In this document: positions 29,929 through 63,672 of the stretch, in pieces | Layout of the letters: every line of letters starts with the position of its first letter | Numbering within the stretch: position 1 is the stretch's first letter | Assembly: GCA_964573205.1 (NCBI GenBank) | Contig: CAZNIT010000041.1 | Location: forward strand, 422-64,421 | Length of the DNA stretch: 64,000 nucleotides | From: an uncultured Sulfurospirillum sp. | GTDB lineage: Bacteria > Campylobacterota > Campylobacteria > Campylobacterales > QNZT01 | Direction: 5' to 3' | Translations under genes and position numbers: made by a program | Notes under the pieces: model-generated | What the model saw: the letters and a program-made list of their open reading frames with translations, nothing else | Databases searched by the model: none | Told to the model about the DNA's origin: nothing

Positions 29929-30498
29929 ATGAAAAGATCAATTTTACTGACAAGTTTTCTGGCTTTAAGTTTATGGGCTGTGGATTTTTCCCAAATGACT
30001 ACGGAACAACTCATACAAATGAGAGGAAGCGTAGCGGTTGAAGATAGAGACGCTTATAGAGCACAAATGCAAAGCCGTCTGCAAAACATGACGCAAGAAG
30101 AGAGAGCGGCATTTATGGCTTCTCGTCAAGTATCTGGTATGGGCGGTAATATGGGAGCGGATAGACCGACATTTACGCAGCTCGATAGTGATGGTGACGG
30201 TAAAATCACGCAATCTGAACTTGAAGCGGCACAGGCGGCGCGAATGGAAGCAAAAGCGGCACAAGGCAGACTCTTGAAAAATGCAGGCAATGCACCGGCT
30301 TTTTCAACACTCGATACAAACGGTGACGGTTCTATCGACGCAAATGAATTTCAAGCACAACAACAAGCGGCAATGCAATCACGCATGAAAAATATGCGGC
30401 AGCGAGGAAATCAAATGAATACTCAAATGAGTGAAACACGCCTTCAAAACGGTTCAAGAAGAGGTCAAATGATGCAAGGCATGGGTAGAGGCCGGTAA
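29929..30498 (+). CDS. secreted EF-hand calcium-binding protein
   Basis: 189 aa. Signal peptide. Two canonical EF loops, DSDGDGKITQSE and DTNGDGSIDANE. Gln/Met/Arg-rich tail. Confidence 0.75.
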   Translation: MKRSILLTSFLALSLWAVDFSQMTTEQLIQMRGSVAVEDRDAYRAQMQSRLQNMTQEERAAFMASRQVSGMGGNMGADRPTFTQLDSDGDGKITQSELEAAQAARMEAKAAQGRLLKNAGNAPAFSTLDTNGDGSIDANEFQAQQQAAMQSRMKNMRQRGNQMNTQMSETRLQNGSRRGQMMQGMGRGR

Positions 30499-40028: not shown

Positions 40029-41630
40029 ATGAAACACCCGTACACCCTCATTTACCCAACTGTTTTGGCACTCTTTTTAGCATCTTGCTCAACCTCCGGC
40101 ACTACCGTAAACGATTCAAACACCAGCACAGAAAACGAAGCTTTGAAATTCACATCTTTAAACAAAAAGAGTGTTCAAGAGAACACAAAAGATGTTTTGA
40201 CAATTTCCACTTCAAAAACACAAGATATCAACCTTACAATTACGGGCGAGGAAGATAAAGACGAGTTTATTATAGACTCTCTAAACAAGGTATTGTCCTT
40301 TAAGAGTTCTCCTGATTTCGAGAACCCGACGGACTACGATAAAAATAACGAATATCTAGTAGAAATAACCGCTACGGATGCCGAAGGAAATTCGATATCA
40401 CAGAAAATTACGGTTTTAGTTACAAACGACGAAAGTGACGACGGGCCGAAATTTACTTCGGATGCGAACATATCTGTCGCCGAAAATAGACAATTAGATT
40501 TTAAAGTCTCTGCCGAAGGCGCCATAAAATATGAGATAGGCGGTGAAGATAAGATGAGATTTGATCTAAATCAAAGCGACGGGAAACTGCGGTTTTTGAA
40601 TTTTCTGCCCGATTATGAAAATAGTTCCGATAAAGATCATGATAACGATTACTCCATCCAAATTATCGCAACCGACGATCAAAACTACAGCAATACTCAA
40701 AATATGATCATAAAAATAAAGAACGACCCCTCCGACGACGATACCGATGAAGGGAGAATAAAAATCTTTAAAACCGGTGATGACGACGGCATAGTGAAAG
40801 GTGAAAATTTCGGAGACGATAGAAATTTCGAACTAAATATCGTAAACTCGGATCGTCTTATAACGATCTCAAAAAGAGTATGGCAGGATGCACCTGAAAA
40901 TAAAAACGCCGACTATACATTCGAAGAAGCCCAAAACTACTGTGAAAATCTTGAATACGGAGGAATAGACGACTGGAGAGTTCCTAACAGACATGAAATG
41001 TATGAAATCGTCAATTACGGCTATACCAACTCCGCAAAACCTACTATAGACGATATATTTGAAAACGCTATAAAAGCAAACTATTGGACTTCTCAAAATG
41101 TCATTGACTACGGAGGCAATATACTTACGAACGAAGCGTTCGTCGTTTATTTCGTTGACGGAGCCTCATATGCGCTTAAACGAGATCAAAAATTCGCCGT
41201 ACGATGCGTTAGCGGTCCGCAATTGACATTTAACGACACGATCACAAGAGACGACGACGATACATACAAAGATCCCAAAACAGGTCTGCAGTGGACATCT
41301 CCAAAAGAGCATCAAAGCCTTTTCGAGGCTAAAAAAAGATGCGAGGAGTTGCGCTTTTTGGGATTTGACGACTGGAGAATGCCCAATATCAATGAACTAC
41401 ATACGATCATGCCCACATACGGAGAAAATTTTTTACTGGACGAGACAAACAGCGGTCCGTTTTGGGCGACGACCAAATTAGACGGTACGAAGGGAAGATA
41501 TATCGAAAACTATTGGAACTATATCGAGTGGGATTTGACGACAGGAAGAGATGTATTGAATGACGAAAGTGAAAAAATCGATGTCGCGAATACTTCCGGT
41601 TCGGTATGTGTAAGAGGAGGACATTTCTAA
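40029..41630 (+). CDS. lipoprotein with two cadherin-like repeats and two DUF1566 (Lcl C-terminal, C-type-lectin-like) domains
   Basis: 533 aa. Lipobox LFLASC. Cadherin-like segments (F.ID...L.F...PD[FY]ENP.D...N.Y...I.A.D, ending in D-rich DDGP/SDDD). Two DUF1566-type motifs, DDWRVPNRHEMYEI and DDWRMPNINELHTI. Confidence 0.7.
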   Translation: MKHPYTLIYPTVLALFLASCSTSGTTVNDSNTSTENEALKFTSLNKKSVQENTKDVLTISTSKTQDINLTITGEEDKDEFIIDSLNKVLSFKSSPDFENPTDYDKNNEYLVEITATDAEGNSISQKITVLVTNDESDDGPKFTSDANISVAENRQLDFKVSAEGAIKYEIGGEDKMRFDLNQSDGKLRFLNFLPDYENSSDKDHDNDYSIQIIATDDQNYSNTQNMIIKIKNDPSDDDTDEGRIKIFKTGDDDGIVKGENFGDDRNFELNIVNSDRLITISKRVWQDAPENKNADYTFEEAQNYCENLEYGGIDDWRVPNRHEMYEIVNYGYTNSAKPTIDDIFENAIKANYWTSQNVIDYGGNILTNEAFVVYFVDGASYALKRDQKFAVRCVSGPQLTFNDTITRDDDDTYKDPKTGLQWTSPKEHQSLFEAKKRCEELRFLGFDDWRMPNINELHTIMPTYGENFLLDETNSGPFWATTKLDGTKGRYIENYWNYIEWDLTTGRDVLNDESEKIDVANTSGSVCVRGGHF

Positions 41631-43219
41631 TGATAAAAAAAATATATACATTAACTATTATGGCCGCTCTCATAGCGGGATGCGGAGGCGGTCAAAATAA
41701 CGGCGACGAAAACTCCGTGCGATTTTCATTCGACTCTTTTGAAACTTCCAAAACCGTTATGGAAAATAGTTCCGTAGATATTCTACTAATAAAGACGAAT
41801 GAAGAAAATATATCCTACTTCATAAGCGGCGGAGAGGATAAAGATATATTTAATATCGATAAAACCGCCGGTATGTTATCTTTTAAAACTCCGGTCGATT
41901 ATGAAAATCCCAAAGATAAAAACGCCGACAATATATACAAAGTGACCGTCGGCGCAAAAAACGATAAAAACGAAACTTTAACCAAAGAGATATCGGTTAC
42001 CGTCGTAAACGATCCGACAGACGACGGTCCGGTTTTTAAATCGCCAAGCGCTATCACTCTTGAAGAGAACAAAAAATTGGATTTCTCTATCGTCGTTGAG
42101 GATAACAACTCGGCAGGCTTCATATATATTATCAGTGCCGGCGAAGATCTGAAAAAATTCACGCTGAACAACTCGACCGGTAAATTATCGTTCAACTCTT
42201 TCATACCCGACTTCGACAATCCTTCCGATTTTGACAAAGATAACAGTTATAAAATCGTCGTTAAAGCTATAAACGATAAAAATATCTCAAACGAACAAAA
42301 TATCTCCATCAACATAACGGACGATCCGGATGACTTAATCCCATCAAGAACGGTATTCAAAACCGGACAAGACGACGGTCCCGTAAAAGGATTGCCCTTT
42401 GGCGAGGATAGAGATTTCATAGTACATGACGAGATAGATACGCAAAGAGCCGTTTCGCTCGGAGACAGAATGTGGGAAGATAGTGAACATGTAACAAATA
42501 CCAAACTTGATTTCGATAGTGCGAACGACTATTGCGATACGCTCGATTATGCCGGATATGACGACTGGAGAGCTCCTAATCGTCATGAATTGGCCGAAAT
42601 CATAAACTACGGCAAAAAAAATGTACTTATAGATGACATTTTCAATTATAAAAACGGTGGAAACTTCTGGACATCGCAACCTCGTCTTTCAAGTACCGGC
42701 GACAATTCGAAAGCTTGGAGCATATCGTTTAGCGACGGTGAAGCTTACGACGAACCTAAAGGAAGTGATTTTTATATCAGATGCGTTCGAGGAAAAGAGA
42801 TAAAAGATCATCACGACTTCAGCGTCGAAGGCGACATCGTCATAGATAACAAAACCGGCTTAATGTGGCAAAACGCCCGCTTTAGCGCAAAAAGAACTTG
42901 GCAAGAAGCGATAGACTACTGCAAAAAACTTGAATTTGAAGGATACGACGACTGGCGTCTGCCGAATGTCAACGAACTTCGTACAATCATGCCAAAAGAC
43001 GGCGATGAAATACTTTTTGAAGATCTCTCACCCATAGACATGGATAGCGGTCACTCCTGGTCGTCAACCGATTACGACGAAACTCATGCCAGATACAATC
43101 TAAACTTCTGGGATGCGGAATCCGACAGAGACTCTCTTATCATGATGTATGAAGAGTGGACAAAAGATCAAAACAACGACATGATGTTAAACCGTTGCAT
43201 CAGAGGAGGACATTTATAA
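41630..43219 (+). CDS. paralogous lipoprotein with two cadherin-like repeats and two DUF1566 domains
   Basis: ORF 41606..43219 trimmed to the ATG at 41630, which forms a TAATG overlap with the upstream stop. Lipobox LIAGC. Same architecture as its neighbour (DDWRAPNRHELAEI, TGLMWQ...DDWRLPNVNELRTI). Confidence 0.7.
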   Translation: MIKKIYTLTIMAALIAGCGGGQNNGDENSVRFSFDSFETSKTVMENSSVDILLIKTNEENISYFISGGEDKDIFNIDKTAGMLSFKTPVDYENPKDKNADNIYKVTVGAKNDKNETLTKEISVTVVNDPTDDGPVFKSPSAITLEENKKLDFSIVVEDNNSAGFIYIISAGEDLKKFTLNNSTGKLSFNSFIPDFDNPSDFDKDNSYKIVVKAINDKNISNEQNISINITDDPDDLIPSRTVFKTGQDDGPVKGLPFGEDRDFIVHDEIDTQRAVSLGDRMWEDSEHVTNTKLDFDSANDYCDTLDYAGYDDWRAPNRHELAEIINYGKKNVLIDDIFNYKNGGNFWTSQPRLSSTGDNSKAWSISFSDGEAYDEPKGSDFYIRCVRGKEIKDHHDFSVEGDIVIDNKTGLMWQNARFSAKRTWQEAIDYCKKLEFEGYDDWRLPNVNELRTIMPKDGDEILFEDLSPIDMDSGHSWSSTDYDETHARYNLNFWDAESDRDSLIMMYEEWTKDQNNDMMLNRCIRGGHL

Positions 43220-43316: not shown

Positions 43317-44300
43317 ATGATTGAAGTCGTTCATAAAGATATAGAAAACTATACGGATACCCTTCATGTTATGGCACAGGAGGGTTCTCTCAAAGCCAGA
43401 AGTGACGATTACGGATGGTTCGTTTCCGAAAATTATATTCTGCCCTATTTTCTCGACAAAAGACTTATTTTCACGAGAATGATCTTTATGACGGGCTCTC
43501 TTCCCAGAAAAGCCGATCTAACTAAAGAAGATGAGAAAACCTTTTTAAACGAAATGATAGAGTATGTAAAAACAAACATGAAAAATGTTGACTTTATCGC
43601 AAAAGCACAGTCGGTTGCGGTTTTTCATGCCTGTCCCGACGGCGCGGAATGCGTACCGTGGGGAACTTATATTATAGATATAGACAAAAGCGAAGAGGAG
43701 ATACTCGCAAGTTTCGAAGCCAAAACCAGACAAGGAGTTCGAAAAGGGATCAAAAAGGGGGTTACGGTCGAGACCACCAATGATCTTGATTTGGTTTTTG
43801 AAGTGATCAAAGATACTTTTACAAGACAAAATAGTCCCTATATGGCTTCGTACGACTATTTTAAAAAACTTTACGACAATCTTAAAGACAATATCAAACT
43901 ATATATCGCCAAAGCCGACGATAAAGTTCAAGGTGTTTATATCATAGCTTTTGACAAAAAGAGTGCATACTCCTGGTATAGCGGAAGTGCTGCCAGAATG
44001 ATTAACGGTGCGAACAACCTATTGCACTATCAAATCATGGTCGATATGATGAAAATGGGAATCAAAGAGTTCAATCTCGTAGGCGCGAGGCTAAATGTAA
44101 AACCCGGTACGAAATACGAGGGAATCAATAAATTCAAACTGGGATTTAAACCTAAAATCGAGGAGGGTTACGCTTTTAGATATATTTTTCACCCTCTAAA
44201 ATTTAAACTGTATAATTTGACCGTTAAACTCTATTTTAAATTAAAAGGCATGAAATATGTCGATCCTATAGATCAAATACGAGATAATAAATACGATTGA
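43317..44300 (+). CDS. FemAB-like / GNAT-fold (Acetyltransf_6-type) transferase
   Basis: 327 aa. The pattern R.GVRKGIKKGVTVE...DLD.VFE...F.KLY...YIAKADDKVQG...YSGS...NLLHYQIM...G..EFNLVG...GINKFKLGF parallels FemX/FemAB family proteins. Confidence 0.6.
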   Translation: MIEVVHKDIENYTDTLHVMAQEGSLKARSDDYGWFVSENYILPYFLDKRLIFTRMIFMTGSLPRKADLTKEDEKTFLNEMIEYVKTNMKNVDFIAKAQSVAVFHACPDGAECVPWGTYIIDIDKSEEEILASFEAKTRQGVRKGIKKGVTVETTNDLDLVFEVIKDTFTRQNSPYMASYDYFKKLYDNLKDNIKLYIAKADDKVQGVYIIAFDKKSAYSWYSGSAARMINGANNLLHYQIMVDMMKMGIKEFNLVGARLNVKPGTKYEGINKFKLGFKPKIEEGYAFRYIFHPLKFKLYNLTVKLYFKLKGMKYVDPIDQIRDNKYD

Positions 44301-44429: not shown

Positions 44430-44505
44430 TCCGGGTTAGCTCAGTTGGTAGAGCAGGTGGCTGTTAATCACTTGGTCGTTGGTTCGAGTCCTTCACCCGG
44501 AGCCA
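44430..44505 (+). tRNA. tRNA-Asn (anticodon GTT)
   Basis: 76 nt. Acceptor stem TCCGGGT/ACCCGGA, D-arm AGCTCAGTTGGTAGAGC, anticodon loop CTGTTAA, T-arm GGTTCGAGTCC, encoded CCA. Confidence 0.93.
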
Positions 44506-44716
44506 TTTTCTCATCATAAACTATCTCATTCTCAACACCGATGTATATTTGCCCATATTTCATATTTATATGATATAGCATTAAGTTATATTTATACTTT
44601 CGCTACTTTAATGTAAAAATTTCTGATAATATAATTTATTTTTATAAAATCATTGACTTTAAATATAATTTTTTGTAAACTACCGGCATATAATAATTAG
44701 AAAGGATGTATTAATC

Positions 44717-46048
44717 ATGTACCTTATAAATCTACAAAAGGTCTTTTTGAGCTTAATACCGGCAATTGTGCTCTCTTTGTTTTTGACCGGCTGTTTCGCA
44801 ACCAACGAACAACAAGTTGAAAAAGTCGTGAGCGAAAAAAAGAGCGCTCAAGCGAAAATCGAACAACCCCAAGAGCCTACTCCCCAGCCAAAGAGCGAGC
44901 CTCGAACCGCTCAAAACTCAGCAGAAACTCAAACCGGCGGTGAATTGGTGTTTGCTCCGAACCTAAAACAGGCAAAAGCGGTCGTTCATCCGCCATACGA
45001 AACAAAGGATTGTACACTTTGCCATAAAAACAAAAATCCAAAAGATGGTGACGATCTTGTGATGGATGTACCGGATCTTTGTTACCAATGCCATGATAAA
45101 AAGGTAAAAGAGGGTAAAAAGTTCATCCACGGTCCGGTTGCGGCCGGTGCTTGTACGATATGCCACAATCCTCATCAAACTCAAAATTCGGCTTTGTTGA
45201 AATTCTCGAATATAAACGAGTTGTGCACCTCTTGCCACACCGCAAAAGCCGATCTTTTAAAATCGACACAAAATGTTCACCCGCCGGTGAAAGACTCTTG
45301 CGTAAATTGTCATGATCCTCATACCGAAGATTACAAATTCCAGTTAAGAGGCGACGGCAAAAAAGATCTATGTATAATGTGTCATGTCGATAAACAGGAG
45401 TGGATCACAAGCGTTAAAAATAAGCACGGCGCTATGAATATAGAGCAAGGGTGTCAAAACTGCCACGATCCTCACGGTACGGGACAACCCAAAATGTTAA
45501 AAGCGGATACCGTAAAAGATATGTGTCTTAAATGTCACTCAAAAACTCAGATAAGAGATGAAGATGGAGCCAAGCTTATAAATATGGGTAAACATTTAAA
45601 AGAGAACCCGGACTGGCATGGACCGATCCAGTGGGGTGACTGTGCGATGTGTCATAACCCTCACGGTTCGGAAAATCTAAGAATGTTGAAAAAACCGTTC
45701 CCAAGTACATTCTACAGTGAATTTGATGAGCATAACTATATCTGTTTTGAGTGTCATGATGCAGGAAAGATCAAAAACGAATTTACGACTGATGATACGA
45801 ACTTTAGAAACGGAAACGCTAATATGCACTTCGTTCATGTCAACAAGAAAAAAGGCAGAACTTGTCGAGCTTGTCATGATTTTCACGGAACTAAAGATTA
45901 TCCGCATCATCTAAAGAAAAAAACCGAATTTGGGAAAATTAAATTCCCAATCAGATACATCGAAACACCGACCGGCGGTTCTTGTGCTCCGGCTTGTCAT
46001 GCCAGACGATATTATGACAGAGAAAAGCCTGTCAAAAATCTAAAGTAA
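44717..46048 (+). CDS. dodecahaem c-type cytochrome lipoprotein (11 CxxCH + 1 CxxxCH)
   Basis: 443 aa. Lipobox LFLTGC and a Pro/Gln-rich linker. Haem motifs CTLCH, CYQCH, CTICH, CTSCH, CVNCH, CIMCH, CQNCH, CLKCH, CAMCH, CFECH, CRACH and CAPACH. Four of them are CxxCH[ND]PH (paired-CXXCH type). Confidence 0.85.
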   Translation: MYLINLQKVFLSLIPAIVLSLFLTGCFATNEQQVEKVVSEKKSAQAKIEQPQEPTPQPKSEPRTAQNSAETQTGGELVFAPNLKQAKAVVHPPYETKDCTLCHKNKNPKDGDDLVMDVPDLCYQCHDKKVKEGKKFIHGPVAAGACTICHNPHQTQNSALLKFSNINELCTSCHTAKADLLKSTQNVHPPVKDSCVNCHDPHTEDYKFQLRGDGKKDLCIMCHVDKQEWITSVKNKHGAMNIEQGCQNCHDPHGTGQPKMLKADTVKDMCLKCHSKTQIRDEDGAKLINMGKHLKENPDWHGPIQWGDCAMCHNPHGSENLRMLKKPFPSTFYSEFDEHNYICFECHDAGKIKNEFTTDDTNFRNGNANMHFVHVNKKKGRTCRACHDFHGTKDYPHHLKKKTEFGKIKFPIRYIETPTGGSCAPACHARRYYDREKPVKNLK

Positions 46049-46062
46049 TGAAGGTTAGATAG

Positions 46063-47133
46063 ATGAGTAAAAGTATATTTTTCGGATATATTTTACTCTT
46101 TGCGGCATTTGCATCTTTTGCAAATGCCAAAGATAAATCTTTTGAAATTATAAAACCTTTAAATAAAAGTATTTACGATGAGGATTATGCATCGATCGTC
46201 ATAAAAAGAGTGGACAAATCTCTTAAAAAAATTACGGTTCTTGAAAACGAAGATATTATTGCGGAGTTTGCAACGGATAAAAAGAGAGATATCTACTGTA
46301 AAACCATTCGACTCAAACTTGGAAAAAACCGGATCAATTTAGTCGGATATACCGAAAAAGGAAACTTGACAAATAAAGAGATAGATATTTTTTACAGATC
46401 AGAAATTCACAAAGGTGTAGATGAAGCGCCCGATGAATACAGCAGAAACTTTTTTCATACAAATAAAAATGAAAAATTTTGTAAATCTTGTCACAATATG
46501 GAAAAAGATAGAGCAACAAAACTAAAAAAGCATATCTCCTCCTCCGAAATCAACGCAAAAGAGTTCGATGTCATTGAAAACCCTGAAGATTCAAACTGCT
46601 ATACTTGTCATAAAGTGATCACATTTAGAAAAAACGGTCACGCACCGGCAGTTAATTTTTTATGTACGGCATGCCATACGGGTAAAAGTGGTGAATTTAA
46701 TATAGAAGATGAAGGCAAATCAAAATATTTAATGCCCGATCCCATCATGAATAGATGTTTTAAATGTCACGAGGGCGTTAAAGAGAAGTGGTTTTCAAAT
46801 ACATCCGAACACGGTCCTCTTAGATCGGGAAGGTGTAACAAATGTCACAATCCTCACTCGTCGGATTTTGAATTTCACTTAAGAAAGCCCATATGGGAAC
46901 TATGCACAACGTGTCATGCGGAAAAAGCCAACGGTAAGCATGTTATAGGTAGCTTTGTTTTCAATAGAAACAGCGGTGGTCATCCAACGCGAGGAAGACC
47001 CGATCCTTCTCGTCCGGGTCGTGATCTTGTATGTTCAAGCTGTCACAATCCACACGGCTCAAACGGTATATTTTTACTGAGGACTAAAGGTAAAACAGCC
47101 TATAGTGTTTGTCAAAGATGTCATAAAAAATAG
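46063..47133 (+). CDS. octahaem c-type cytochrome with haem-free N-terminal domain
   Basis: 356 aa. Signal peptide and a roughly 100-aa beta-rich N-domain. Haem motifs CKSCH, CYTCH, CTACH, CFKCH, CNKCH, CTTCH, CSSCH and CQRCH. Confidence 0.85.
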   Translation: MSKSIFFGYILLFAAFASFANAKDKSFEIIKPLNKSIYDEDYASIVIKRVDKSLKKITVLENEDIIAEFATDKKRDIYCKTIRLKLGKNRINLVGYTEKGNLTNKEIDIFYRSEIHKGVDEAPDEYSRNFFHTNKNEKFCKSCHNMEKDRATKLKKHISSSEINAKEFDVIENPEDSNCYTCHKVITFRKNGHAPAVNFLCTACHTGKSGEFNIEDEGKSKYLMPDPIMNRCFKCHEGVKEKWFSNTSEHGPLRSGRCNKCHNPHSSDFEFHLRKPIWELCTTCHAEKANGKHVIGSFVFNRNSGGHPTRGRPDPSRPGRDLVCSSCHNPHGSNGIFLLRTKGKTAYSVCQRCHKK

Positions 47134-47143
47134 GAACTCAAAG

Positions 47144-48004
47144 ATGGATATAGATGTTATAAATTTGATCAAAAACAACCTTGACATAAAAGTCACATTT
47201 TTACTGACGGTCGCTATGACCATGCTAACACCCGTACAGGTACAATCGGTCACATTCGAAGAACTAAAAGCCAGAGCGCAAGCCGCCGCGAAAAGAAGAA
47301 GCACTTCTCAAATTCAGGCAAAGATGAAAGAGCGTCTCAAACACTCCAAAACCTATCGCGCTCCTTCAAATATGGGCTCTGGAATGAAAACAAAAGCCTA
47401 TACTATTGCCTTAATGAAAGCTGAGAGCGGAGATCCGAATGCGCAGTTTGCACTGGCGGGAATGTATTATCAGGGTATTATGATAAAAAGAAATTACAAA
47501 AAAGCCATCGAATGGTATGAAAAAGCGGCTAAACAAGGACATACTAAAGCACAATTTAACCTAGCTTATATGTATTTTGACGGCAGAGGTACACAAAAAG
47601 ATCACGATAAAGCGTTAAAATGGTTTCTTGAAGCCGGAGAACATAAAGACGGAAAAGCGGAATTATATTTAGGAATAATATATGAAGAGAGAAAAGATCA
47701 CAAGCAAGCGTTTCACTGGTACAAAGAAGCCGCAAAAGAGGGTTATCCAAAAGCTCAATACAAGCTAGCACATATGTACAGACAAGGCAAAGGATGCAAC
47801 AAGGATATGAAGAAGTATATCTACTATCTAAAAAAAGCCGCGGCTCAAAGTGAAGCTCATGCACAATATGATCTTGGTATCGCATATCTAAACGGTGAAG
47901 GTGTTGAAAAGGATAAAGACGACGCCTATCAATGGTTACAAAAAGCATACCTCAACGGTGAGCCGAAAGCGAAAGAGATTTTAAGAAAACTAAAAAAAAG
48001 ATAA
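47144..48004 (+). CDS. exported Sel1-like repeat (SLR) protein
   Basis: ORF 47105..48004 trimmed to the Met at 47144 (AGGA RBS, first Met after the upstream stop). N-terminal hydrophobic segment. About five SLR units (A.[FY].L[AG].MY..G.G...[DN]..KA..W[YF].KAA..G...A). Confidence 0.8.
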   Translation: MDIDVINLIKNNLDIKVTFLLTVAMTMLTPVQVQSVTFEELKARAQAAAKRRSTSQIQAKMKERLKHSKTYRAPSNMGSGMKTKAYTIALMKAESGDPNAQFALAGMYYQGIMIKRNYKKAIEWYEKAAKQGHTKAQFNLAYMYFDGRGTQKDHDKALKWFLEAGEHKDGKAELYLGIIYEERKDHKQAFHWYKEAAKEGYPKAQYKLAHMYRQGKGCNKDMKKYIYYLKKAAAQSEAHAQYDLGIAYLNGEGVEKDKDDAYQWLQKAYLNGEPKAKEILRKLKKR

Positions 48005-48038
48005 AAAAACCTAATTCATATAGGTACAAAGGATATAT

Positions 48039-48848
48039 ATGAAAAGAAATTATTTAACAATATTTATTTTTGCGGCATTGTTAAGCAATTATACGGCCGC
48101 AAATGATTTCGACAAAATGAAAACAAAAGCAAAACTGGTGGCGGAAGAAGAGAAAAAAATTACAAATCGTGTCGATTTTATGAAGCACAAAGCTTTTCAA
48201 GAAGCGAAAAAAAGAGCTTTAAAAGGCGATATAAACTCTCAATACGCCCTAGGCGGAATGTACTATCTTGGAACCGTGACGGATCAGGATTATAAAAAAG
48301 CACTAAAATGGTTTGAAAAAGCGGCGAACAAAGGTCACATAAAAGCGGAGTATGAACTTGGATATATGTATTTTGAAGGAAGAGGAGTACAAAGAGATTT
48401 TAAAAAAGCGTTAAGCTGGTTTAAAAAAGCCGCTGACAAGGGTGATTCGAAAGCTCAGCTTCATCTTGCGCAAATGTATTTCGAAGGGCTTGGAGTAAAA
48501 AGAGACTATGCAAAAGCTTACTATTGGTACCAGGTAACGGCTGACATGGAGTATCCGGATGCCCAATACAAACTAGGTAAAATGTTTTATGACGGACTGG
48601 GTGTCGAAAAAAATCATGAACAAGCGGCTTACTGGTTCTCAAAAGCCGCCGAACAAAGTTTTGCGGACGCGCAGTTCAAGCTGGCTATGATGTATATAAA
48701 CGGTGACGGAGTCAAAAAGGATATGATAAAAGCTAAAGAGCTTCTAGGTCTGGCATATCTAAACGGCAACTTGAGGGCAAAAGATGAACTCATAGCTCAT
48801 GCTTGGAAAGTTCCCGAACCGATCGGAGCTATCTATCTGGACGAATAA
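48039..48848 (+). CDS. exported Sel1-like repeat (SLR) protein, paralogue
   Basis: 269 aa. Signal peptide. About five SLR units, closely resembling the preceding gene. Confidence 0.82.
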   Translation: MKRNYLTIFIFAALLSNYTAANDFDKMKTKAKLVAEEEKKITNRVDFMKHKAFQEAKKRALKGDINSQYALGGMYYLGTVTDQDYKKALKWFEKAANKGHIKAEYELGYMYFEGRGVQRDFKKALSWFKKAADKGDSKAQLHLAQMYFEGLGVKRDYAKAYYWYQVTADMEYPDAQYKLGKMFYDGLGVEKNHEQAAYWFSKAAEQSFADAQFKLAMMYINGDGVKKDMIKAKELLGLAYLNGNLRAKDELIAHAWKVPEPIGAIYLDE

Positions 48849-48854
48849 CGATCT

Positions 48855-48886
48855 CCTTCGCTTATATAGCGAAGGGTAAATTTTTT
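48855..48886 (+). terminator. rho-independent terminator closing the cytochrome/Sel1 operon
   Basis: 8-bp stem CCTTCGCT/AGCGAAGG with a 5-nt loop. A T6 run follows 5 nt downstream. Confidence 0.7.
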
Positions 48887-48990: not shown

Positions 48991-49641
48991 TTGAGACCGA
49001 GCGCTATTTTTACCATATCTTTTTTACTTTTTTTATTATCCGTAAATATCAATGCGCAAATGGCTCAAACACCGCATAATCTCTCCGGGATCTCAGAAAT
49101 CTCTATCAAAGATAACGAGATATGTATCTTTTGCCATACTCCGCATGTTCCCTCTACGATGGCAACCAAACCTTTATGGAACAAAACACCTTCTCAAAAC
49201 GAATTTACGATATACGGTTCGTTGACATCACAATCACATACCCCCAATAATCCGAACTCCTACTCTATGATTTGTTTAAGCTGTCACGACGGAGCTAGCT
49301 CAATAAATTCCATAGTAAACGCACCGGCAAGCACGAATATCGACGGCTCTCTTCCAAAGCTCATTCGACCATCAAGAAGTATCTCCGTCGGAATAAGCGG
49401 AGGATTGAAAGATAATCATCCGGTTTCGGTACCCTACATACCCGGCAAAGCCGGTCTAAAGCCCATATTTGAACCGCTCATCGGTGAATGGAAAGGTGCG
49501 ACATATATATCAGATCTTTTAAGAAACGGACGAGTGGAATGCGGAAGTTGTCATGATCCGCATTTTGCGGATCCCGACGGTATATTTCTAAGAAACAAAA
49601 ACAGTCACAGCGAGATGTGTCTCTCTTGTCATGACAAATAA
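48991..49641 (+). CDS. tetrahaem c-type cytochrome
   Basis: ORF 48949..49641 trimmed to the TTG at 48991 (AGGAG RBS 5 nt upstream), which gives a clean signal peptide. Haem motifs CIFCH(TPH), CLSCH, CGSCH(DPH) and CLSCH. PLWNK motif after the first haem site. Confidence 0.75.
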   Translation: MRPSAIFTISFLLFLLSVNINAQMAQTPHNLSGISEISIKDNEICIFCHTPHVPSTMATKPLWNKTPSQNEFTIYGSLTSQSHTPNNPNSYSMICLSCHDGASSINSIVNAPASTNIDGSLPKLIRPSRSISVGISGGLKDNHPVSVPYIPGKAGLKPIFEPLIGEWKGATYISDLLRNGRVECGSCHDPHFADPDGIFLRNKNSHSEMCLSCHDK

Positions 49642-49647
49642 AAAGAT

Positions 49648-50109
49648 CTATTGACCGTTTTGAAGCAAGTGCTTTTTCCATAACATCTTCGCCTCTTTGG
49701 TCGTACCGTTTCTGTTTTTTTGAAAATAGTCTTTTATAAAAGCGTTATACCTAGCCTCTTCGGCCGAAATTCTCTTCTCCTTCATCTTATTCACCCTTTC
49801 AGGTTTAAGTGTCTGTATATATTTTGCCACGGCCACGATCTCACTATCGCTTAATTTGGTCGCCTGTCCTCTCATAAGTTTACCGAACCCGTATTGATCT
49901 TTGTTGCCGTCTCTATACTCTTTAAGTTCTTTAATGATTTTACTCGCCGGCCAACCGGCTATAACTTTACTTACACCCAAAGATCTCTTTTGAGCATTCA
50001 CGCCGTGACAAGTGCTGCATTTTTTAAAAAGCTTCGCTCCCATACTTGACGCAAACAGCGATACGGTAGAGATCATCAGCAAAATGATCACAGATCGTTT
50101 TATAAACAT
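49648..50109 (-). CDS. monohaem class I cytochrome c (c553-like) with C-terminal extension
   Basis: 153 aa. Signal peptide, GAKLFKKCSTCHG, and distal Met candidate in KLMRGQ. About 50 extra Lys-rich C-terminal residues. Confidence 0.8.
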   Translation of the reverse strand: MFIKRSVIILLMISTVSLFASSMGAKLFKKCSTCHGVNAQKRSLGVSKVIAGWPASKIIKELKEYRDGNKDQYGFGKLMRGQATKLSDSEIVAVAKYIQTLKPERVNKMKEKRISAEEARYNAFIKDYFQKNRNGTTKEAKMLWKKHLLQNGQ

Positions 50110-50234: not shown

Positions 50235-51227
50235 ATGAAAATATTATATCTCTTTGTTGTATTTGCATCGATATTCACTCTATCTTACGCTGCTAATCTC
50301 GATCACTGGAAGAGACCGAAAATTCCTATACCACCGGACAATCCCCAAAACAAGGCCAAAATAGAACTAGGCAAGATCCTATTTTTCGACAAAAGACTCT
50401 CAAGTACGAATACGATCTCATGCGCTAGCTGTCACAACCCGTTGTTCGGATGGAGCGACGCGAAAAGAGTAGCTATCGGAGTTAAAAACAGAAGCGGCAG
50501 ACGAAATACGCCGACCGTTTTAAATAGCGCCTATCTTAATAATTTTTTTCATGACGGACGTGCCAAATCTCTCGAAGAGCAGGCAAAGGGCCCGATCGAA
50601 ACGGAAGTGGAAATGGATATGCCTCTTGATAAACTGGTAAAAAAACTTCAAAAAATAGAAGGTTATAAAAAATTATTTTATAAAGCTTTCAATAGCAATA
50701 AAATCACCGAAGATAAAATATTAAAAGCTATCGCGTCGTTTGAAAGGACGATCGTAACGGACGATACACCATTTAACCGATGGATTAACAACGATAAAAA
50801 CGCTATAAGCGAAGCGGCGAAAGAGGGATTTGAAATTTTCAAAGATAAAGGTAGATGCGACTCCTGTCACAACGGTTTCAACTTCACAAACGAGAGCTTC
50901 AACAACATAGGTTTAGGAGATCGAAACGATTTGGGAGTTTACGAAATCGCTAAAAACAAAAGCAAAATATGGTACGGCGCTTTTAAAACTCCCACTTTGA
51001 TCGCGATTGAATTGACGCCACCCTATTTTCACAACGGCTCTATCGACTCTCTCAAAGAGGCGGTGACCATATGCGGAAACGGAGGGAAAAAACCGGTAAA
51101 GATCCGATCCCCTTTTTTTAGAGATAGAAAACTCGACGAATATGACGTAAACAGAGTGGTCGAATTTCTAAAAACTCTGACTCCCGCACCTTTAAAAATA
51201 AAACCTCCCACAGAATTTCCGAAATAA
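50235..51227 (+). CDS. ccpA: dihaem cytochrome c peroxidase (CCP/MauG family)
   Basis: 330 aa. Signal peptide. CASCHNP...GWSD and CDSCHNGFNFTN motifs. PPYFHNGS is conserved. Confidence 0.88.
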   Translation: MKILYLFVVFASIFTLSYAANLDHWKRPKIPIPPDNPQNKAKIELGKILFFDKRLSSTNTISCASCHNPLFGWSDAKRVAIGVKNRSGRRNTPTVLNSAYLNNFFHDGRAKSLEEQAKGPIETEVEMDMPLDKLVKKLQKIEGYKKLFYKAFNSNKITEDKILKAIASFERTIVTDDTPFNRWINNDKNAISEAAKEGFEIFKDKGRCDSCHNGFNFTNESFNNIGLGDRNDLGVYEIAKNKSKIWYGAFKTPTLIAIELTPPYFHNGSIDSLKEAVTICGNGGKKPVKIRSPFFRDRKLDEYDVNRVVEFLKTLTPAPLKIKPPTEFPK

Positions 51228-51231
51228 GTTA

Positions 51232-51612
51232 TTACTTAAAAAGAAGATTGTCTAAAGTTGTCGGTTTTGCCATATCTTTTGAAGGAGTTGTAAAAATAAG
51301 ACTCTCTTTTTGAATTTTTAGATGACATTTTATACACCTGTCTAATCCTTTATGCTCTTTAACTCCGCTTTTAGAAACTTTAGTTACATCATGACACTCC
51401 CAACAATCCTGACCGCAACCCCCGCCCATATCTATTTTACTCATCTGCTCTTTCGTATGACATGTTACGCAGGTTTTTAAAACTTTATGCTCTTTGTCGA
51501 ATTTTCCATCTTTTATCAATCCCGGATGACAACTTATACAGTCCCCTTCACAGGCAAAAAGAGAGAGTTGCACAAAAAACAACGATAAAAGTACTAAAGT
51601 AAGATTTTTCAT
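51232..51612 (-). CDS. small tetrahaem c-type cytochrome
   Basis: 126 aa. Signal peptide. Haem motifs CISCH, CVTCH, CWECH and CIKCH. Confidence 0.8.
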   Translation of the reverse strand: MKNLTLVLLSLFFVQLSLFACEGDCISCHPGLIKDGKFDKEHKVLKTCVTCHTKEQMSKIDMGGGCGQDCWECHDVTKVSKSGVKEHKGLDRCIKCHLKIQKESLIFTTPSKDMAKPTTLDNLLFK

Positions 51613-51772: not shown

Positions 51773-54073
51773 ATGTATAATTTGATTTATTTTTTTCTTC
51801 TGTTTTCCGGTTTTACATCGATGATATATCAGATCGTATGGCTTAGACTTTTCGCCCTTAGTGTCGGTTCGACGGCTTTGTCGTTAAGCATCGTTGTAGG
51901 TTCTTTTTTTCTTGGGATGGGAATCGGAAGCTTCGTCTCGAGATATATAACGAAAAAAAGAGTTTATACGATAATACCTTATCTGTTCGTCGAAATAATT
52001 ATCGCCGTATCCGCAATAGCTTCCTTGCCGTTACTTTTAAATTTGGATAAAATCGTTACGACTTTTACATTTTTCGCGGATAACGATTTTTTTAAATTTC
52101 TGTTGGTATTCGCATCCCTTTTAATCCCGACGGCGGCTATGGGAGCATCCTTACCGATAATAAGCACACTCTTAATTCACAATAAAAAAAATATCGGTAA
52201 TATCTTTTCAAAAATATATAGCCTAAACACTCTTGGAGCCGTTTTAGGGGCATTCATAGGCGGTTTTGTCATCATTCCGTCGGTCGGACTCGACGGCGCT
52301 ATTTACATTGCCTTTTGCGTAAATATTTCTATCGGCGTTCTTGCTTTTATCTTTTTCAGAAAAAAAAATTTTCAATTACGCGAACATTCGATAAAATCGC
52401 CGAAACAATCCCCTCATATAAATTCCGTCGAAAGAAAAAAAGCCCTTGCGATTTTGTTTATTACCGGCTTCGTATCGATTGCGACGGAAATCGGGTGGAG
52501 TAAATTTCTTATTATTTTCACAGGAAGTACGATTTACGGGTTTTCCGCAATCATATCCGTTTTGCTTTTGGGCATTGCTGTAGGTTCTTGGAGCATGAGA
52601 AAACGCATAGACGCTATCGTCAGAAAGCAGCAATGGCTTTTATACTCACTTTTAATTCTATCTCTCTCCCTTTTGATAACGGCGGGAATGCTTACTCATG
52701 TAGCGACAATTTATGAATTTTTAAATCGATCCGCACTTAGTGTAAATGTGCAAAGCATGATAAAACTTCTGGTGATTTTCATACTAATTTTCCCTCCATC
52801 GTTTCTTTTTGGTACGATTTTTCCGCTTTCCATTTCACTCTATGCACAAAATGAAAAAGATATTTTAAAAAACAGTTCAACGGCGTTTGCACTCAATACC
52901 GTTGCCGGTATTGCCGGATCGATAACGGCCGGTTTATGGATAATTCCTCATTTTGGAACGAGCGTTTTACTTTTCACATCGGCTGCAACGGTGGCGATAT
53001 CGAGCATACTGTTTTTTAAAAATATCGAAGAAAAGAGAGACCGGTATATTTCATACACACTTCTTTTTACCTCTTTGTCGATGATATTCGTTTTTGCGAA
53101 ACCGGATTTCAAGCCTATGATCGCCGCAACTTACAACCATACGCAATTTACACCGCAAGACGATTTGAATATTACATATGTCAAAGAGGGCAAAAGCGGC
53201 GTTATCGCACTACTATACGAACAAGCGAGATATGTAAGAGTTTTAAATAACGGTCTTAGCGAATCTAGTCTAGACATATACGATCCGGATAATGTCAATT
53301 TAGCCGAAACTCTTTTAGCGATTATTCCTTATCTACTGCATAAAAATCCGAAAAACGCCTTCATAATCGGATTTGGCGGAGGAACGACGGCATATGCGAT
53401 GACTAGAACCGATCTAAAATCGATTCAAGTAGTCGAACTTGAACCGCAAATCGTAACCGCTTTAAAAACCGTTTATAAAAACGGTATCCCCGCACTAGAA
53501 GATAAAAGATTGAAATTGACGATAAACGATGCCCGCAATCAACTTTTAAAAGAGCGTAATAGATACGATATAATCGTCTCGCAACCCTCTCATCCTTGGC
53601 TTAGCGGTGCCTCTTCTCTCTTTACGAAAGAGTTTTTCGAGCTGACGAAACAAAAAATTAAAGACGACGGCATCTACGGTCAGTGGATCAATCTATTCAA
53701 TATGGACTCCACAACTCTAAAATCGATAATAAAGGCGTTTGTCGATACTTATCCCTACACTATGAGTTTCGCGATTATGCAAACTGAAGATTTTTTGCTT
53801 TTTGGTTCAAAAAAACCTTTTGTTACGGATACGAAAGAGATACAAAAAAAGCTGAATAACCCGAAAATTGCGAATCTATTGTATCCTTACAACATCTATA
53901 CGCCTAAAGCCCTCTTCGCTTACAAGTCGCTTTCGAGACAAAAATTGCAAAATCTTACAAGAAATCAAATGGCAAACAGTGATTTGAACATCATCAGCGA
54001 AACGAGACTCTCAAAACTCGAATGGAGAAAACCTCCCCAGCCGGACGAAGATCCATATCTTCTGTTTCGCTAA
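51773..54073 (+). CDS. polytopic membrane domain fused to a spermidine-synthase-like (aminopropyl/methyltransferase fold) domain
   Basis: 766 aa. About 12 hydrophobic helices in aa 1-440. The C-terminal domain has IIGFGGGTTA (GxGxG), VELEP and YDIIVSQPSHPW motifs of the SpeE fold. Confidence 0.72.
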   Translation: MYNLIYFFLLFSGFTSMIYQIVWLRLFALSVGSTALSLSIVVGSFFLGMGIGSFVSRYITKKRVYTIIPYLFVEIIIAVSAIASLPLLLNLDKIVTTFTFFADNDFFKFLLVFASLLIPTAAMGASLPIISTLLIHNKKNIGNIFSKIYSLNTLGAVLGAFIGGFVIIPSVGLDGAIYIAFCVNISIGVLAFIFFRKKNFQLREHSIKSPKQSPHINSVERKKALAILFITGFVSIATEIGWSKFLIIFTGSTIYGFSAIISVLLLGIAVGSWSMRKRIDAIVRKQQWLLYSLLILSLSLLITAGMLTHVATIYEFLNRSALSVNVQSMIKLLVIFILIFPPSFLFGTIFPLSISLYAQNEKDILKNSSTAFALNTVAGIAGSITAGLWIIPHFGTSVLLFTSAATVAISSILFFKNIEEKRDRYISYTLLFTSLSMIFVFAKPDFKPMIAATYNHTQFTPQDDLNITYVKEGKSGVIALLYEQARYVRVLNNGLSESSLDIYDPDNVNLAETLLAIIPYLLHKNPKNAFIIGFGGGTTAYAMTRTDLKSIQVVELEPQIVTALKTVYKNGIPALEDKRLKLTINDARNQLLKERNRYDIIVSQPSHPWLSGASSLFTKEFFELTKQKIKDDGIYGQWINLFNMDSTTLKSIIKAFVDTYPYTMSFAIMQTEDFLLFGSKKPFVTDTKEIQKKLNNPKIANLLYPYNIYTPKALFAYKSLSRQKLQNLTRNQMANSDLNIISETRLSKLEWRKPPQPDEDPYLLFR

Positions 54074-62055: not shown

Positions 62056-63000
62056 TTATTTCTTAAATTTCGACCCCTCGATGATAACCGCATACGAATA
62101 ACCGTATCCGAAATCGATATTTGTCTTTAAAGTACCTGTAGCCGTAACTTCGTCTCCTTCGACGGCAGTATCGTCAGGCGATGTAAAAACCAGATCGTTC
62201 GTTCCGGAACTTCCAGTACCGTCTTGAATATGAATCCAGTTTCTATCCATAATTCCTTCCGAGACTTTTACCACTTTACCCTTGACGCTTATTATCGTAT
62301 TGTTAAGATCGTTCGCTTGCGCATAGATCTGCTCGACGGTAAATAGTTTCAACGCCGTATCTTCAGAAGAGCTTTTCTCTTGAGTTTTAGCCGCATCCTC
62401 TTTTTGCTGCGATACGTCTGTCACGACGGGTTGAGTGCCGTTTTCCTCTTTTTTTAGGGCTTTAGGTTTTTCTTGAATCTCTTTTTTCTCGATTTTTTTG
62501 ACCTCGGAAGCTTTGGACTCCAAAGAACTTGCGAACATAACCGCATCGAACGTACGACCCAAAGTTTTACTTGTAAAATTTTTCATCCACATCTGCTCAT
62601 TAAAAGTAACTTCACCGCCTATCTCTACCTCAGCCTGTGGAGCCGCCATCCAGTACTCTTTATCACCCTCTTTCACTTTTACATAGACATAGGGAGCAGC
62701 TTTTAAAACCTCAACGGCTATCGCCGTATGAGGCGTACCTTTTGTCTTGCTTACGGGCATAGGATGAGGTATCTTTTTTTGATTTTTTTGTGTTTCTTCC
62801 ATCCGGGCGGTCGCATCTTTTGCACCGTGAGTATCGATTTCATCCTTTTTTTGAGTCTCTTCTTTTACCGTTTTTGCGACAGGTTCCGTACTTTGTTGTT
62901 TGATTTCCTTGACGGTCGTCGTACCTTTATCCTCACAACCGGTTAATACGAATAGTGAAGCGATCAATAATAAACTTGCATGTTTTTTAGATAGTTTCAT
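62056..63000 (-). CDS. hypothetical lipoprotein with Lys/Glu-rich linkers and two beta-rich (OB-like) modules
   Basis: 314 aa. Lipobox LTGC. No confident domain assignment. Confidence 0.55.
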   Translation of the reverse strand: MKLSKKHASLLLIASLFVLTGCEDKGTTTVKEIKQQSTEPVAKTVKEETQKKDEIDTHGAKDATARMEETQKNQKKIPHPMPVSKTKGTPHTAIAVEVLKAAPYVYVKVKEGDKEYWMAAPQAEVEIGGEVTFNEQMWMKNFTSKTLGRTFDAVMFASSLESKASEVKKIEKKEIQEKPKALKKEENGTQPVVTDVSQQKEDAAKTQEKSSSEDTALKLFTVEQIYAQANDLNNTIISVKGKVVKVSEGIMDRNWIHIQDGTGSSGTNDLVFTSPDDTAVEGDEVTATGTLKTNIDFGYGYSYAVIIEGSKFKK

Positions 63001-63318: not shown

Positions 63319-63672
63319 ATGAGTAAACTAATAAAATTTTCGACATTTATACTGTTGGTTCTATCCGCGACACTTTTCGCTCGAGACTCTTTTAAGATGC
63401 AAAACGATCTTGACGGCGGAGATATATTCGACTCCAAAGGATGTACGGTTTGTCATGATGTTAAGATGGAGAGAATCGCTCCGTCGCTACAATATATATC
63501 GACCATATATCAAAGGGACGAAAATGCCTTGGTATCGTTCTTAAAAGGCGAAAGAAGTGCGATAGTATATCCTGAAAACGCGTCCACGATGCAGCCCCAA
63601 CTATTGAAACTAAAAAGCTTGTACGATGACGAGATAAGAGCATTGGCCAGATATATAATTCAAAGTGACTAA
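63319..63672 (+). CDS. small monohaem cytochrome c
   Basis: 117 aa. Signal peptide, single CTVCH, and a distal Met candidate (STMQPQ). Confidence 0.72.
   Translation: MSKLIKFSTFILLVLSATLFARDSFKMQNDLDGGDIFDSKGCTVCHDVKMERIAPSLQYISTIYQRDENALVSFLKGERSAIVYPENASTMQPQLLKLKSLYDDEIRALARYIIQSD

Follow-up and report, generated by a model that had tools for sequence, protein, structure and literature searches.

The closest described relatives of the locus considered here are the gene clusters for OmcE nanowires. OmcE itself is represented by structure 7TFS (PMC12954529), and a bundle of the Desulfuromonas soudanensis protein by 9YUQ; a conserved pattern of four CxxCH motifs and four further histidines marks the family (bioRxiv 10.1101/2025.10.22.684050). 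The minimal omcE cluster comprises two multihaem cytochromes, two beta-propeller lipoproteins, OmcE and a large beta-barrel, beside resB/ccsB, and examples are known from Campylobacterota, Aquificota and Nitrospirota; genes for a large outer-membrane beta-barrel and a beta-propeller lipoprotein nearby serve as a filter for nanowire-competent homologues (same preprint). Work on such nanowires has so far dealt mainly with Geobacter and its relatives, and their secretion, their assembly and the way in which electrons are loaded onto them still await an explanation. The present subject is a four-gene operon in a 64-kb window (the whole stretch of DNA analysed, 64,000 nucleotides of contig CAZNIT010000041.1, from an uncultured Sulfurospirillum sp.), whose source lineage lies in the Campylobacterales, close to Hydrogenimonas and Nitrosophilus. 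It encodes two multihaem cytochromes, called G1 and G2, and two exported proteins made of Sel1 repeats, called g3 and g4. By its gene content the operon belongs to the already described kind of island that builds OmcE-type nanowires, an island known here from genes alone. We put at roughly 0.55 the probability that G1 and G2 are the haem-wire core pair of such an island and that the Sel1 proteins are non-redox accessories to it.

The four genes form a real operon: two multihaem cytochrome genes and two genes for exported, paralogous Sel1 proteins, all co-directional and tightly packed, with gaps of 14, 10 and 34 nucleotides in the list of open reading frames (ORFs; coordinates are in Table 1). 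The stem-loop that follows has a 9-bp stem (48854-48876, 5 GC pairs), then TAAATTTTTT, a T-run extending to 48886. Promoter-like hexamers lie at 44641-44669 (10/12) and 44653-44681 (9/12); they are weak, as the whole scan found 26 against 21.7 expected in shuffles. The mechanical ORF of g3 starts at GTG 47105, overlapping G2; that GTG is the less likely start, and ATG 47144, which has AGGA 8 nucleotides upstream and agrees with the ENA gene call, is the likely one. An earlier reading of the window from its letters alone (the sequence-only reading) had described co-directional genes spaced by 10-34 nucleotides, with tRNA-Asn before them and a stem-loop plus T-run after, and all of this was reproduced.

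The same can be said of its description of the cytochromes. G1 has the lipobox LFLTGC, then a low-complexity tether of ~60 residues rich in Pro, Gln, Glu and Lys (residues 25-84), which is disordered in the AlphaFold2 model (predicted local distance difference test, pLDDT, <50), and 12 haem sites, of which 11 are CxxCH and one is CAPACH (CxxxCH). G2 has a signal peptide and 8 CxxCH motifs, the first at residue 140. Its haem-free N-domain (residues ~25-112) is modelled as a confident beta-sandwich, with pLDDT 84-91, of generic FnIII/Ig type; its best matches, to FnIII-like and SoxYZ-type Ig-like folds, carry no functional clue. Sites of the form CxxCH[ND]PH, also remarked on in that reading, number four in G1 and two in G2.

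Profile hidden Markov model searches place G1 and G2 among the paired-CXXCH proteins, and g3 and g4 among the Sel1 proteins. The paired-CXXCH model PF09699 (cut-off 20.6) gives G1 178.2 and G2 87.0 bits, and TIGR01905 (cut-off 25.2) gives 157.6 and 81.9 bits. The DmsE/MtrA decahaem family, TIGR03508, is not reached (151.6 and 57.8 bits, cut-off 192.2), and the motifs number 11+1 and 8, not ten; nor is the GSU2203 decahaem family, NF041028 (98.2 and 54.7 bits, cut-off 325). In Pfam and NCBIfam, none of the four proteins reaches the cut-off of a curated, characterised family. The closest solved chain is MtrA of MtrCAB (6r2q_A; E 9e-13 for G1, 9e-9 for G2); Foldseek with the AlphaFold2 model of G1 returned noise only (E>5).

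In an alignment of 17 G1 homologues, 25 histidines are invariant for the 12 haem sites, enough that all 12 haems could be bis-His. The C-x-P-x-C-H motif near the C-terminus is invariant as well, and is found in 67 of 71 G1 sequences and in all 15 sequences of a paralogous family, G1'. The G2 alignment holds 8 haem sites and 15 invariant histidines; Met146, which belongs to the first motif (CHNM), hardly varies. One haem of G2 may not be bis-His, because its eight CxxCH motifs are set against only seven further invariant histidines and because of this methionine. Judged by these alignments, G1 and G2 would be MtrA-like and apparently all-bis-His, non-catalytic electron wires. A catalytic octahaem or NrfA-type enzyme was considered and rejected: matches to NrfB, NrfH and HmcA are sub-threshold, there is no CxxCK, and the histidine count fits bis-His ligation.

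The form of G1 with lipobox and tether is confined to the clade of the window (L004-L009 and L084-L086 among the loci compared, including Nitrosophilus and Hydrogenimonas); in Sulfurimonas and Nitrospirota, G1 begins with a plain signal peptide instead. As to where the lipoprotein is sorted, its Phe at +2 would by the rule of E. coli direct it to the outer membrane; the rule of Campylobacterota may differ.

The link to nanowires begins with the gene just downstream of the operon. Its product, g5, matches OmcE over its full length (residues 23-230), with E 1.7e-20 to the D. soudanensis protein (9yuq_N) and E 6e-18 to that of G. sulfurreducens (7tfs_A). A second homologue, of 219 aa, lies ~18 kb downstream of the operon, just past the window, and matches better (2.2e-33 to 7tfs_A, 4.2e-29 to 9yuq_N). 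Eight histidines (H29, H49, H52, H99, H143, H188, H191 and H214) are invariant in 13 OmcE-like homologues; four of them stand in CxxCH motifs and four more outside. By these matches g5 and the second copy are OmcE homologues; formation of a filament by either is putative. The sequence-only reading had pictured an isolated conduit with its entry and exit points unexplained, and this picture has to be given up: both the next gene and the second copy on the contig encode OmcE homologues.

That second copy was found by a look-up anchored on the gene at 63319-63672, for a monohaem cytochrome c (cytc121), which gave 10 kb more of the contig, a 171-kb contig of a metagenome-assembled genome (L088; ENA ERZ27262694 k141_563371; the window coordinate is the L088 coordinate + 53318). 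After cytc121 come genes for a 373-aa sensor-like protein, a response regulator, a histidine kinase, the 219-aa tetrahaem cytochrome, a 394-aa NHL lipoprotein, a SurA-like peptidyl-prolyl isomerase (PPIase), a 587-aa protein, a second NHL protein, a 161-aa protein and a 1077-aa CcsBA fusion. The NHL lipoprotein and the 587-aa protein are encoded 0.3-2.5 kb from the OmcE copy. The 587-aa protein is Cys-free, rich in Tyr, Ser and Asn, and ends in RRVF; its composition, its C-terminal Phe and the adjacency of PPIase and barrel genes as in the uet cluster make it a putative outer-membrane barrel. This putative barrel, the NHL propellers, the PPIase and CcsBA lie 18-26 kb downstream of the operon, and ~14 kb of other genes separate the two halves of the island in this genome. 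Nitrosophilus alvini has the island unsplit, with G1-G2 followed by a two-component system and the same module. A set of three genes, for a dCache-type periplasmic sensor, an OmpR-type response regulator and a histidine kinase (L088:10399-13350, or ~63717-66668 in window coordinates; also in L008, L085 and L086), regularly comes after G1-G2 or after the gene for the monohaem cytochrome c; the recurrence suggests dedicated regulation of the island.

The operon and the 64-kb window contain no quinol dehydrogenase, no barrel, no catalytic subunit and no MtrB/PioB-type porin. The sequence-only reading had said as much of the first three, which is right for the operon and the window; for the system it fails, because the partners lie on the contig beyond the window (the putative barrel) or in relatives (NapC/NirT).

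Relatives of G1 are many: more than 1000 in databases, and at least 549 among GTDB species representatives, in Campylobacterota, Aquificales, Nitrospirota and Thermodesulfovibrionia, Desulfobacterota including Geobacteraceae, Acidobacteria, Deferribacteres and Planctomycetes. The survey of gene neighbourhoods that the sequence-only reading had proposed covered 80 loci from several phyla, mapped by phmmer, and the loci fall into three layouts. Gene order marks G1-G2 as the conserved pair at the core of a multihaem island that occurs in at least seven phylum-level groups. The two genes are adjacent in every Campylobacterota locus with enough sequence; in related Campylobacterota the gene after G2 is g5 in 15 loci, a Sel1 gene in 2 and another gene in 9. 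The two multihaem cytochromes of the omcE cluster have their positional equivalents in G1 and G2 in Campylobacterota, Aquificales and some Nitrospirota.

The first layout is that of the Sulfurimonadaceae, one island of ~30 kb: cytochrome c, G1, G2, a g5-like tetrahaem cytochrome, an NHL protein, PPIase, a 597-aa protein, a second NHL protein, a 10-haem cytochrome, CcsBA, a spermidine-synthase-like membrane protein and a DUF4136 lipoprotein; on the opposite strand, a lipoprotein, a di-haem cytochrome c and a Sel1 protein; and finally NapC/NirT, a 3-haem cytochrome, G1' and two copies of G2', the paralogue of G2. In the Aquificales, a single operon of G1, NapC, G1', G2' and G2 diverges from genes for NHL, PPIase, 597-aa and tetrahaem proteins. 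The third layout, in Nitrospirota and other phyla, is G1, a TPR (tetratricopeptide repeat) protein, one or two copies of a thioredoxin-fold-TPR protein, and G2, after which genes of the NHL, tetrahaem, PPIase and 597-aa types often come; outside Campylobacterota, a TPR or thioredoxin-TPR gene follows G1 in 28 of 35 loci. The haem lyase genes ccsB and ccsA stand directly upstream of G1 in four Nitrospirota loci, as CcsBA stands inside the Sulfurimonas island.

A metagenomic contig, L089 (VAPK010015845.1, 2906-11731), has the most compact version of the system. All its genes are co-directional: OmcE-like, G1, G2, a g3-type Sel1, a g4-type Sel1, NapC/NirT, a 3-haem cytochrome, G1' and G2'. Here G1 has no lipobox, and G1' has the motif CQPACH. 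The second Sel1 ORF overlaps the first by 4 nucleotides, and the NapC/NirT gene comes directly after the Sel1 pair. With this gene, which is also in the cluster in Sulfurimonas and Aquificales, L089 supplies by homology the quinol-level entry point that the sequence-only reading had missed.

If G1 and G2 are the core of an OmcE-type island, a path for electrons can be proposed. They would enter from menaquinol or a soluble cytochrome c pool, by way of the in-cluster NapC/NirT tetrahaem cytochrome in relatives; here only monohaem cytochromes c are visible. They would cross the periplasm via G2 and G1, with the lipid anchor and flexible linker of G1 tying it to a membrane, probably the outer one, and would leave through the barrel to an extracellular OmcE-type filament. 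The flow could be outward reduction or electron uptake. The Sel1 proteins would serve as a periplasmic holdase or specificity factor for the long Cys-rich cytochromes, together with CcsBA, possibly for the C-x-P-x-C-H site.

The Sel1 proteins themselves are clear members of their family (PF08238, cut-off 30.7): g3 scores 145.5 bits and g4 182.4 bits, over five stretches each, and the two are 46% identical. Both N-termini are hydrophobic and compatible with export; the signal peptide of g4 is canonical and that of g3 atypical, yet conserved in L084 and L089. The tandem paralogues with export signals of the sequence-only reading are there, with this reservation as to g3. Neither protein has a cofactor motif. 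Their cysteines number one in g3 and none in g4; Helicobacter cysteine-rich (Hcp-type) Sel1-like repeat proteins were rejected as a model, the disulfide-forming Cys pair of each repeat being absent. The C-terminal tail of g4, W-x-V-P-x-P ... Y-L-D-E, is conserved, and orthology to g4 was judged by this tail (in the common form W-x-V/A ... L/Y-x-E) and by full-length identity.

How firmly are these proteins tied to the cytochromes? Orthologues of g3 were found in L084 (84% identity) and L089 (62%), and full-length orthologues of g4 in L084 (78%), L089 (65%), L004 (51%) and eight Sulfurimonas islands (43-50%). Sel1 genes within the operon are limited to a narrow clade: the window, the sister metagenome-assembled genome L084, whose layout is identical and whose G2 is 84% identical, L004 (one copy) and L089. 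The Sulfurimonas islands have a single Sel1 gene. Within 1.43 Mb of flanking sequence outside the window, all 12 Sel1 ORFs that match g3 or g4 (E<=1e-6) adjoin genes of G1/G2 type. In the reverse test, a g4 search of metagenomes, one close orthologue was found, that of L089, between two cytochrome sets; the other 78 loci, with generic Sel1 genes, had no such cytochrome neighbours. A database homologue search with g4 returned generic long Sel1 proteins only, its self-match being absent. The link between Sel1 and cytochromes is more than chance. The sequence-only reading had asked whether Sel1 genes are conserved next to the cytochromes in related genomes, and the answer is half negative: most G1-G2 pairs have no Sel1 gene in their operon, yet g4 orthologues are always beside cytochromes.

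As to what the Sel1 proteins do, a role in maturation or assembly, outside the electron path, is favoured because of the analogy to NrfG, SirG and CcmI and to the ccsAB-nrfG genes of the uet cluster; we hold it tentatively, at somewhat less than even odds. Proteins of related architecture accompany the pair elsewhere. Exported fusions of a thioredoxin fold (AhpC/TSA, Redoxin) with TPRs lie between G1 and G2 in L037 (11768-14048) and also in L035-L083. Among 35 such ORFs, 26 of the thioredoxin folds have a recognisable motif, and in 25 of these W-S-x-x-S replaces the W-C-x-x-C of ResA/TlpA-type proteins. Both active-site cysteines are replaced there; the domains therefore appear to be redox-dead modules for binding rather than redox chemistry. 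The Nitrospirota TPR protein comes close to PF23914, the CcmH/CycH TPR model, with a sub-threshold 35.6 bits against 42. One might go further and suppose that all the exported TPR-class proteins (Sel1 in Campylobacterota, TPR and cysteine-less thioredoxin-TPR in Nitrospirota, Desulfobacterota and other phyla) form a dedicated pathway for the maturation or assembly of G1 and G2, feeding OmcE-type nanowires; this wider proposal we consider rather unlikely.

About as doubtful is the supposition that the Sel1 proteins are stoichiometric docking adaptors, tying small cytochromes c (of the g6 or cytc121 type) or the barrel module to G1 and G2. It would explain why Sel1 is always near a small cytochrome c gene: a homologue of g6 shares an operon with Sel1 in eight Sulfurimonas loci, Sel1 is paired with cytc121 in L004, and in the window g6 is two genes from Sel1. 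The conserved acidic C-terminal tail of the g4 orthogroup could then be a docking peptide. All the partners are basic, however (isoelectric points 8.6-10.1), which disfavours simple electrostatic docking, and the cysteine-less ResA/TlpA-like fold found elsewhere fits binding of unfolded CXXCH better than binding of a holo-cytochrome.

The hypothesis of the sequence-only reading, that the four proteins alone make up a porin-less conduit in the periplasm or at the outer surface, with the Sel1 pair as permanent scaffolds holding G1 and G2, seems improbable. Parts of it stand: the operon is exported, and it does pair wire cytochromes with Sel1 proteins. The close spacing of co-transcribed genes, the presence of two paralogous Sel1 proteins for two cytochromes, the generic role of Sel1 repeats as protein-protein adaptors (Pfam PF08238) and the lack of a barrel in the window all speak for it. 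What does not stand is the isolation, as OmcE homologues lie next door and on the contig, and the OmcE/NHL/PPIase/putative-barrel module accompanies the pair on the same contig and in nearly all relatives. Moreover, most G1-G2 pairs have no Sel1 gene in their operon, and L004 and the Sulfurimonas island have only one.

Less probable again is a view of the Sel1 proteins as ExoR-like periplasmic regulators of the dCache sensor and histidine kinase, or as passenger genes. The sensor, regulator and kinase follow G1-G2 or cytc121 in L008, L085, L086 and L088, there is a weak, generic match to ExoR (NCBIfam, 47 bits against a cut-off of 450), and many G1-G2 loci manage without Sel1. But the Sel1 pair of L089 is inserted between two cytochrome sets with its ORFs overlapping by 4 nucleotides, the g4 orthogroup is never found away from these cytochromes, and the Sulfurimonas islands that have Sel1 show no adjacent two-component system. 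That G1-G2 is a periplasmic electron store, or links the cytochrome c pool to a di-haem peroxidase, with the OmcE linkage incidental, is the least credible of these views: a CCP/MauG gene and three small cytochrome genes do lie directly downstream here and in L084, thioredoxin-fold domains elsewhere match the peroxiredoxin-type AhpC/TSA model, and Geobacteraceae G1 is not near omcE, but the peroxidase is absent from all other islands, the thioredoxin-fold proteins have no catalytic Cys, and G2 followed by an OmcE-like gene is the commonest arrangement (15 loci).

Several observations weigh against placing G1-G2 at the core of an OmcE-type island with Sel1 accessories. The AlphaFold2 models of the haem regions of G1 and G2 are poor (mean pLDDT 59). 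Two Geobacteraceae loci have G1-TPR(-G2) and no OmcE gene within 10 kb. The 587/597-aa protein has no Pfam match and, with a 10-sequence profile, no PDB match, and a crude amphipathic beta-moment, which gives z=3.4 for the copy on this contig, gives only 1.0 and 0.7 for two homologues. The CcmH/CycH TPR model (PF23914) does not match g3 or g4 at E<=0.01. Finally, there is no Sel1 gene in L006-L010, and Nitrosophilus alvini and Hydrogenimonas keep G1 (with its CAPACH-type site), G2 and the OmcE module with no Sel1 gene at the locus; Sel1 is therefore not obligatory there, or is encoded elsewhere. That cultured relatives retain G1 and its motif in a locus free of Sel1 counts most against a maturation or assembly role.

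Table 1. Positions in the window of the operon, its boundaries and neighbouring genes
Feature	Position	Strand	Description
tRNA-Asn	44430..44505		Upstream boundary of the operon (tRNA scan)
Intergenic stretch	44506..44716	+	AT-rich, 5' of G1; candidate promoter region
G1	44717..46048	+	443-aa lipoprotein with 12 haem sites
G2	46063..47133	+	356-aa exported cytochrome with 8 CxxCH
g3	47144..48004	+	286-aa exported Sel1-repeat protein; five repeats, without the C-terminal tail
g4	48039..48848	+	269-aa exported Sel1-repeat protein; five repeats, no Cys, conserved C-terminal tail
Stem-loop and T-run	48854..48886	+	Resembles an intrinsic terminator; closes the operon
g5	48991..49641	+	OmcE-like tetrahaem cytochrome, divergent paralogue; start 48949 or 48991
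g6	49648..50109	-	Monohaem cytochrome c with Lys-rich tail
g7	50235..51227	+	Di-haem protein of the cytochrome c peroxidase/MauG family; its association with the system is positional
g8	51232..51612	-	Small exported tetrahaem cytochrome, conserved in L084
g9	51773..54073	+	766-aa polytopic membrane protein with C-terminal spermidine-synthase-like domain
Lipoprotein homologue	62056..63000	-	Matches a 287-aa Sulfurimonas lipoprotein (E 3e-46); no Pfam match
cytc121	63319..63672	+	Monohaem cytochrome c; at the head of the island's downstream half, which continues past the end of the window

Of the genes around the operon, some recur in other islands. The gene for cytc121 directly precedes G1 in almost all other Campylobacterota, and the 287-aa lipoprotein gene of Sulfurimonas is in the same operon as its Sel1 and cytochrome c genes. 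Homologues of g9 lie inside the Sulfurimonas cytochrome island (L011, L046, L048 and L049) and near G1 in L075; L084 has none. The peroxidase gene g7 is flanked by the opposite-strand genes g6 and g8; its position and this arrangement are kept in L084 and absent from the other islands.

Upstream of the operon stand two tandem genes (40029-43219 and 43317-44300, both on the + strand) for lipoproteins that have cadherin-like and Lcl C-terminal (adhesin-type) domains, and after them comes a FemAB-like acyltransferase gene; the same order is found directly upstream of the operon in L084. A 432-aa protein (55070-56368, - strand) consists almost entirely of ~10 ankyrin repeats (Ank_2, E 3e-120), and L084 has a 426-aa gene product encoded at the equivalent position. 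Farther away are genes for an exported EF-hand/DUF1104 protein (29929-30498, +) and for a 796-aa HerA/DUF87-like ATPase (30972-33362, +), the latter followed by a methyltransferase gene.

The interest of the locus lies in its companions. The G1/G2 pair travels with genes for OmcE-like subunits in chemolithoautotrophs of vents and sediments; it has recurrent exported TPR-class companions without cofactor motifs, and its linkage in relatives extends to a NapC/NirT quinol dehydrogenase and a CcsBA haem lyase. The locus thereby yields candidates that can be tested, both as assembly or maturation factors and as parts of the periplasmic feed line. Cultured carriers of the cluster are Nitrosophilus alvini, Hydrogenimonas sp. 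and Ca. Sulfurimonas marisnigri, the last a reducer of Mn(IV) oxide. If the exported TPR-class proteins were indeed a dedicated pathway, they would open the building and charging of nanowires to genetic study, and the island would become a candidate for the machinery by which sulfur-oxidising Campylobacterota such as Ca. S. marisnigri exchange electrons with a solid phase (Mn(IV) oxide, for example). If the Sel1 genes are passengers, the finding shrinks to another predicted multihaem cluster.

How does the locus compare with known systems? In NrfEFG and SirEFG, with CcmI, and in the Wolinella NrfI and CcsA1 systems, one meets TPR apocytochrome chaperones and dedicated haem lyases. Like the NrfG-type systems, these islands combine exported TPR-class proteins with the cytochromes that they would serve, with a system II synthase and with an atypical haem motif, here C-x-P-x-C-H; g3 and g4 differ in being of the Sel1 type, and we know of no TPR partner of any CcsBA. 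The Geobacter OmaB-OmbB-OmcB complex pairs an 8-haem periplasmic cytochrome with a 12-haem lipoprotein cytochrome, as G2 and G1 do, a likeness by description only; here the pair is neither interrupted nor flanked by a porin gene, and G1 is ~300 aa shorter than OmcB. With the MtrA/DmsE/MtoA family (MtrCAB, 6R2Q) the cytochromes share dense paired-CXXCH motifs and the architecture of a bis-His wire; G1 differs in having 12 haem sites instead of 10, a lipid anchor and tether, and no adjacent MtrB/PioB-type porin gene.

Other likenesses are of gene content. The clusters DFE_0448-0451 and DFE_0461-0465 of Desulfovibrio ferrophilus likewise combine multihaem cytochromes with NHL beta-propellers and no recognised porin, but contain no Sel1; their deletion left reduction of Fe(III) oxide unimpaired (PMC9769857). 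Two further clusters, occ and uet, are predicted modules for extracellular electron transfer. That of Ca. Dechloromonas occultata, occ, is expressed while Mn(III) is being reduced and has many cytochromes, NHL proteins and a PPIase, in a different gene order. The uet cluster of Ca. Tenderia electrophaga, proposed to serve electron uptake (uet preprint), resembles the island in counts and domain types: a tetrahaem cytochrome, a PPIase beside a barrel, two NHL proteins, a cytochrome with 11 CXXCH motifs, and ccsAB with an NrfG-like TPR gene. It differs in gene order and in its triheme c7 proteins and cupredoxin, and it has neither an 8-haem Ig-domain cytochrome nor Sel1.

Nearest of all is the omcE cluster with which we began. 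This kind of island is known only through structures from Desulfuromonadia and descriptions of gene clusters; the filaments have been solved in Desulfuromonadia, and none has been seen in any Campylobacterota. Shared with it are OmcE homologues, two multihaem cytochromes, two beta-propellers (one of them a lipoprotein), the putative barrel and a gene of resB/ccsA type. The island here differs in being split by its ~14 kb, and in adding two Sel1 proteins, a SurA-like PPIase, a two-component system and small cytochromes. The sequence-only reading knew of no electron-transfer module with Sel1 proteins encoded inside a multihaem operon, and indeed, in the literature searched, Sel1 and 'multiheme cytochrome' were nowhere connected and this Campylobacterota island was nowhere described. 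What is new, then, is the Sel1 pair in the operon, the TPR-class and cysteine-less thioredoxin-TPR partners that recur across phyla, and the paralogous cytochrome set linked to NapC.

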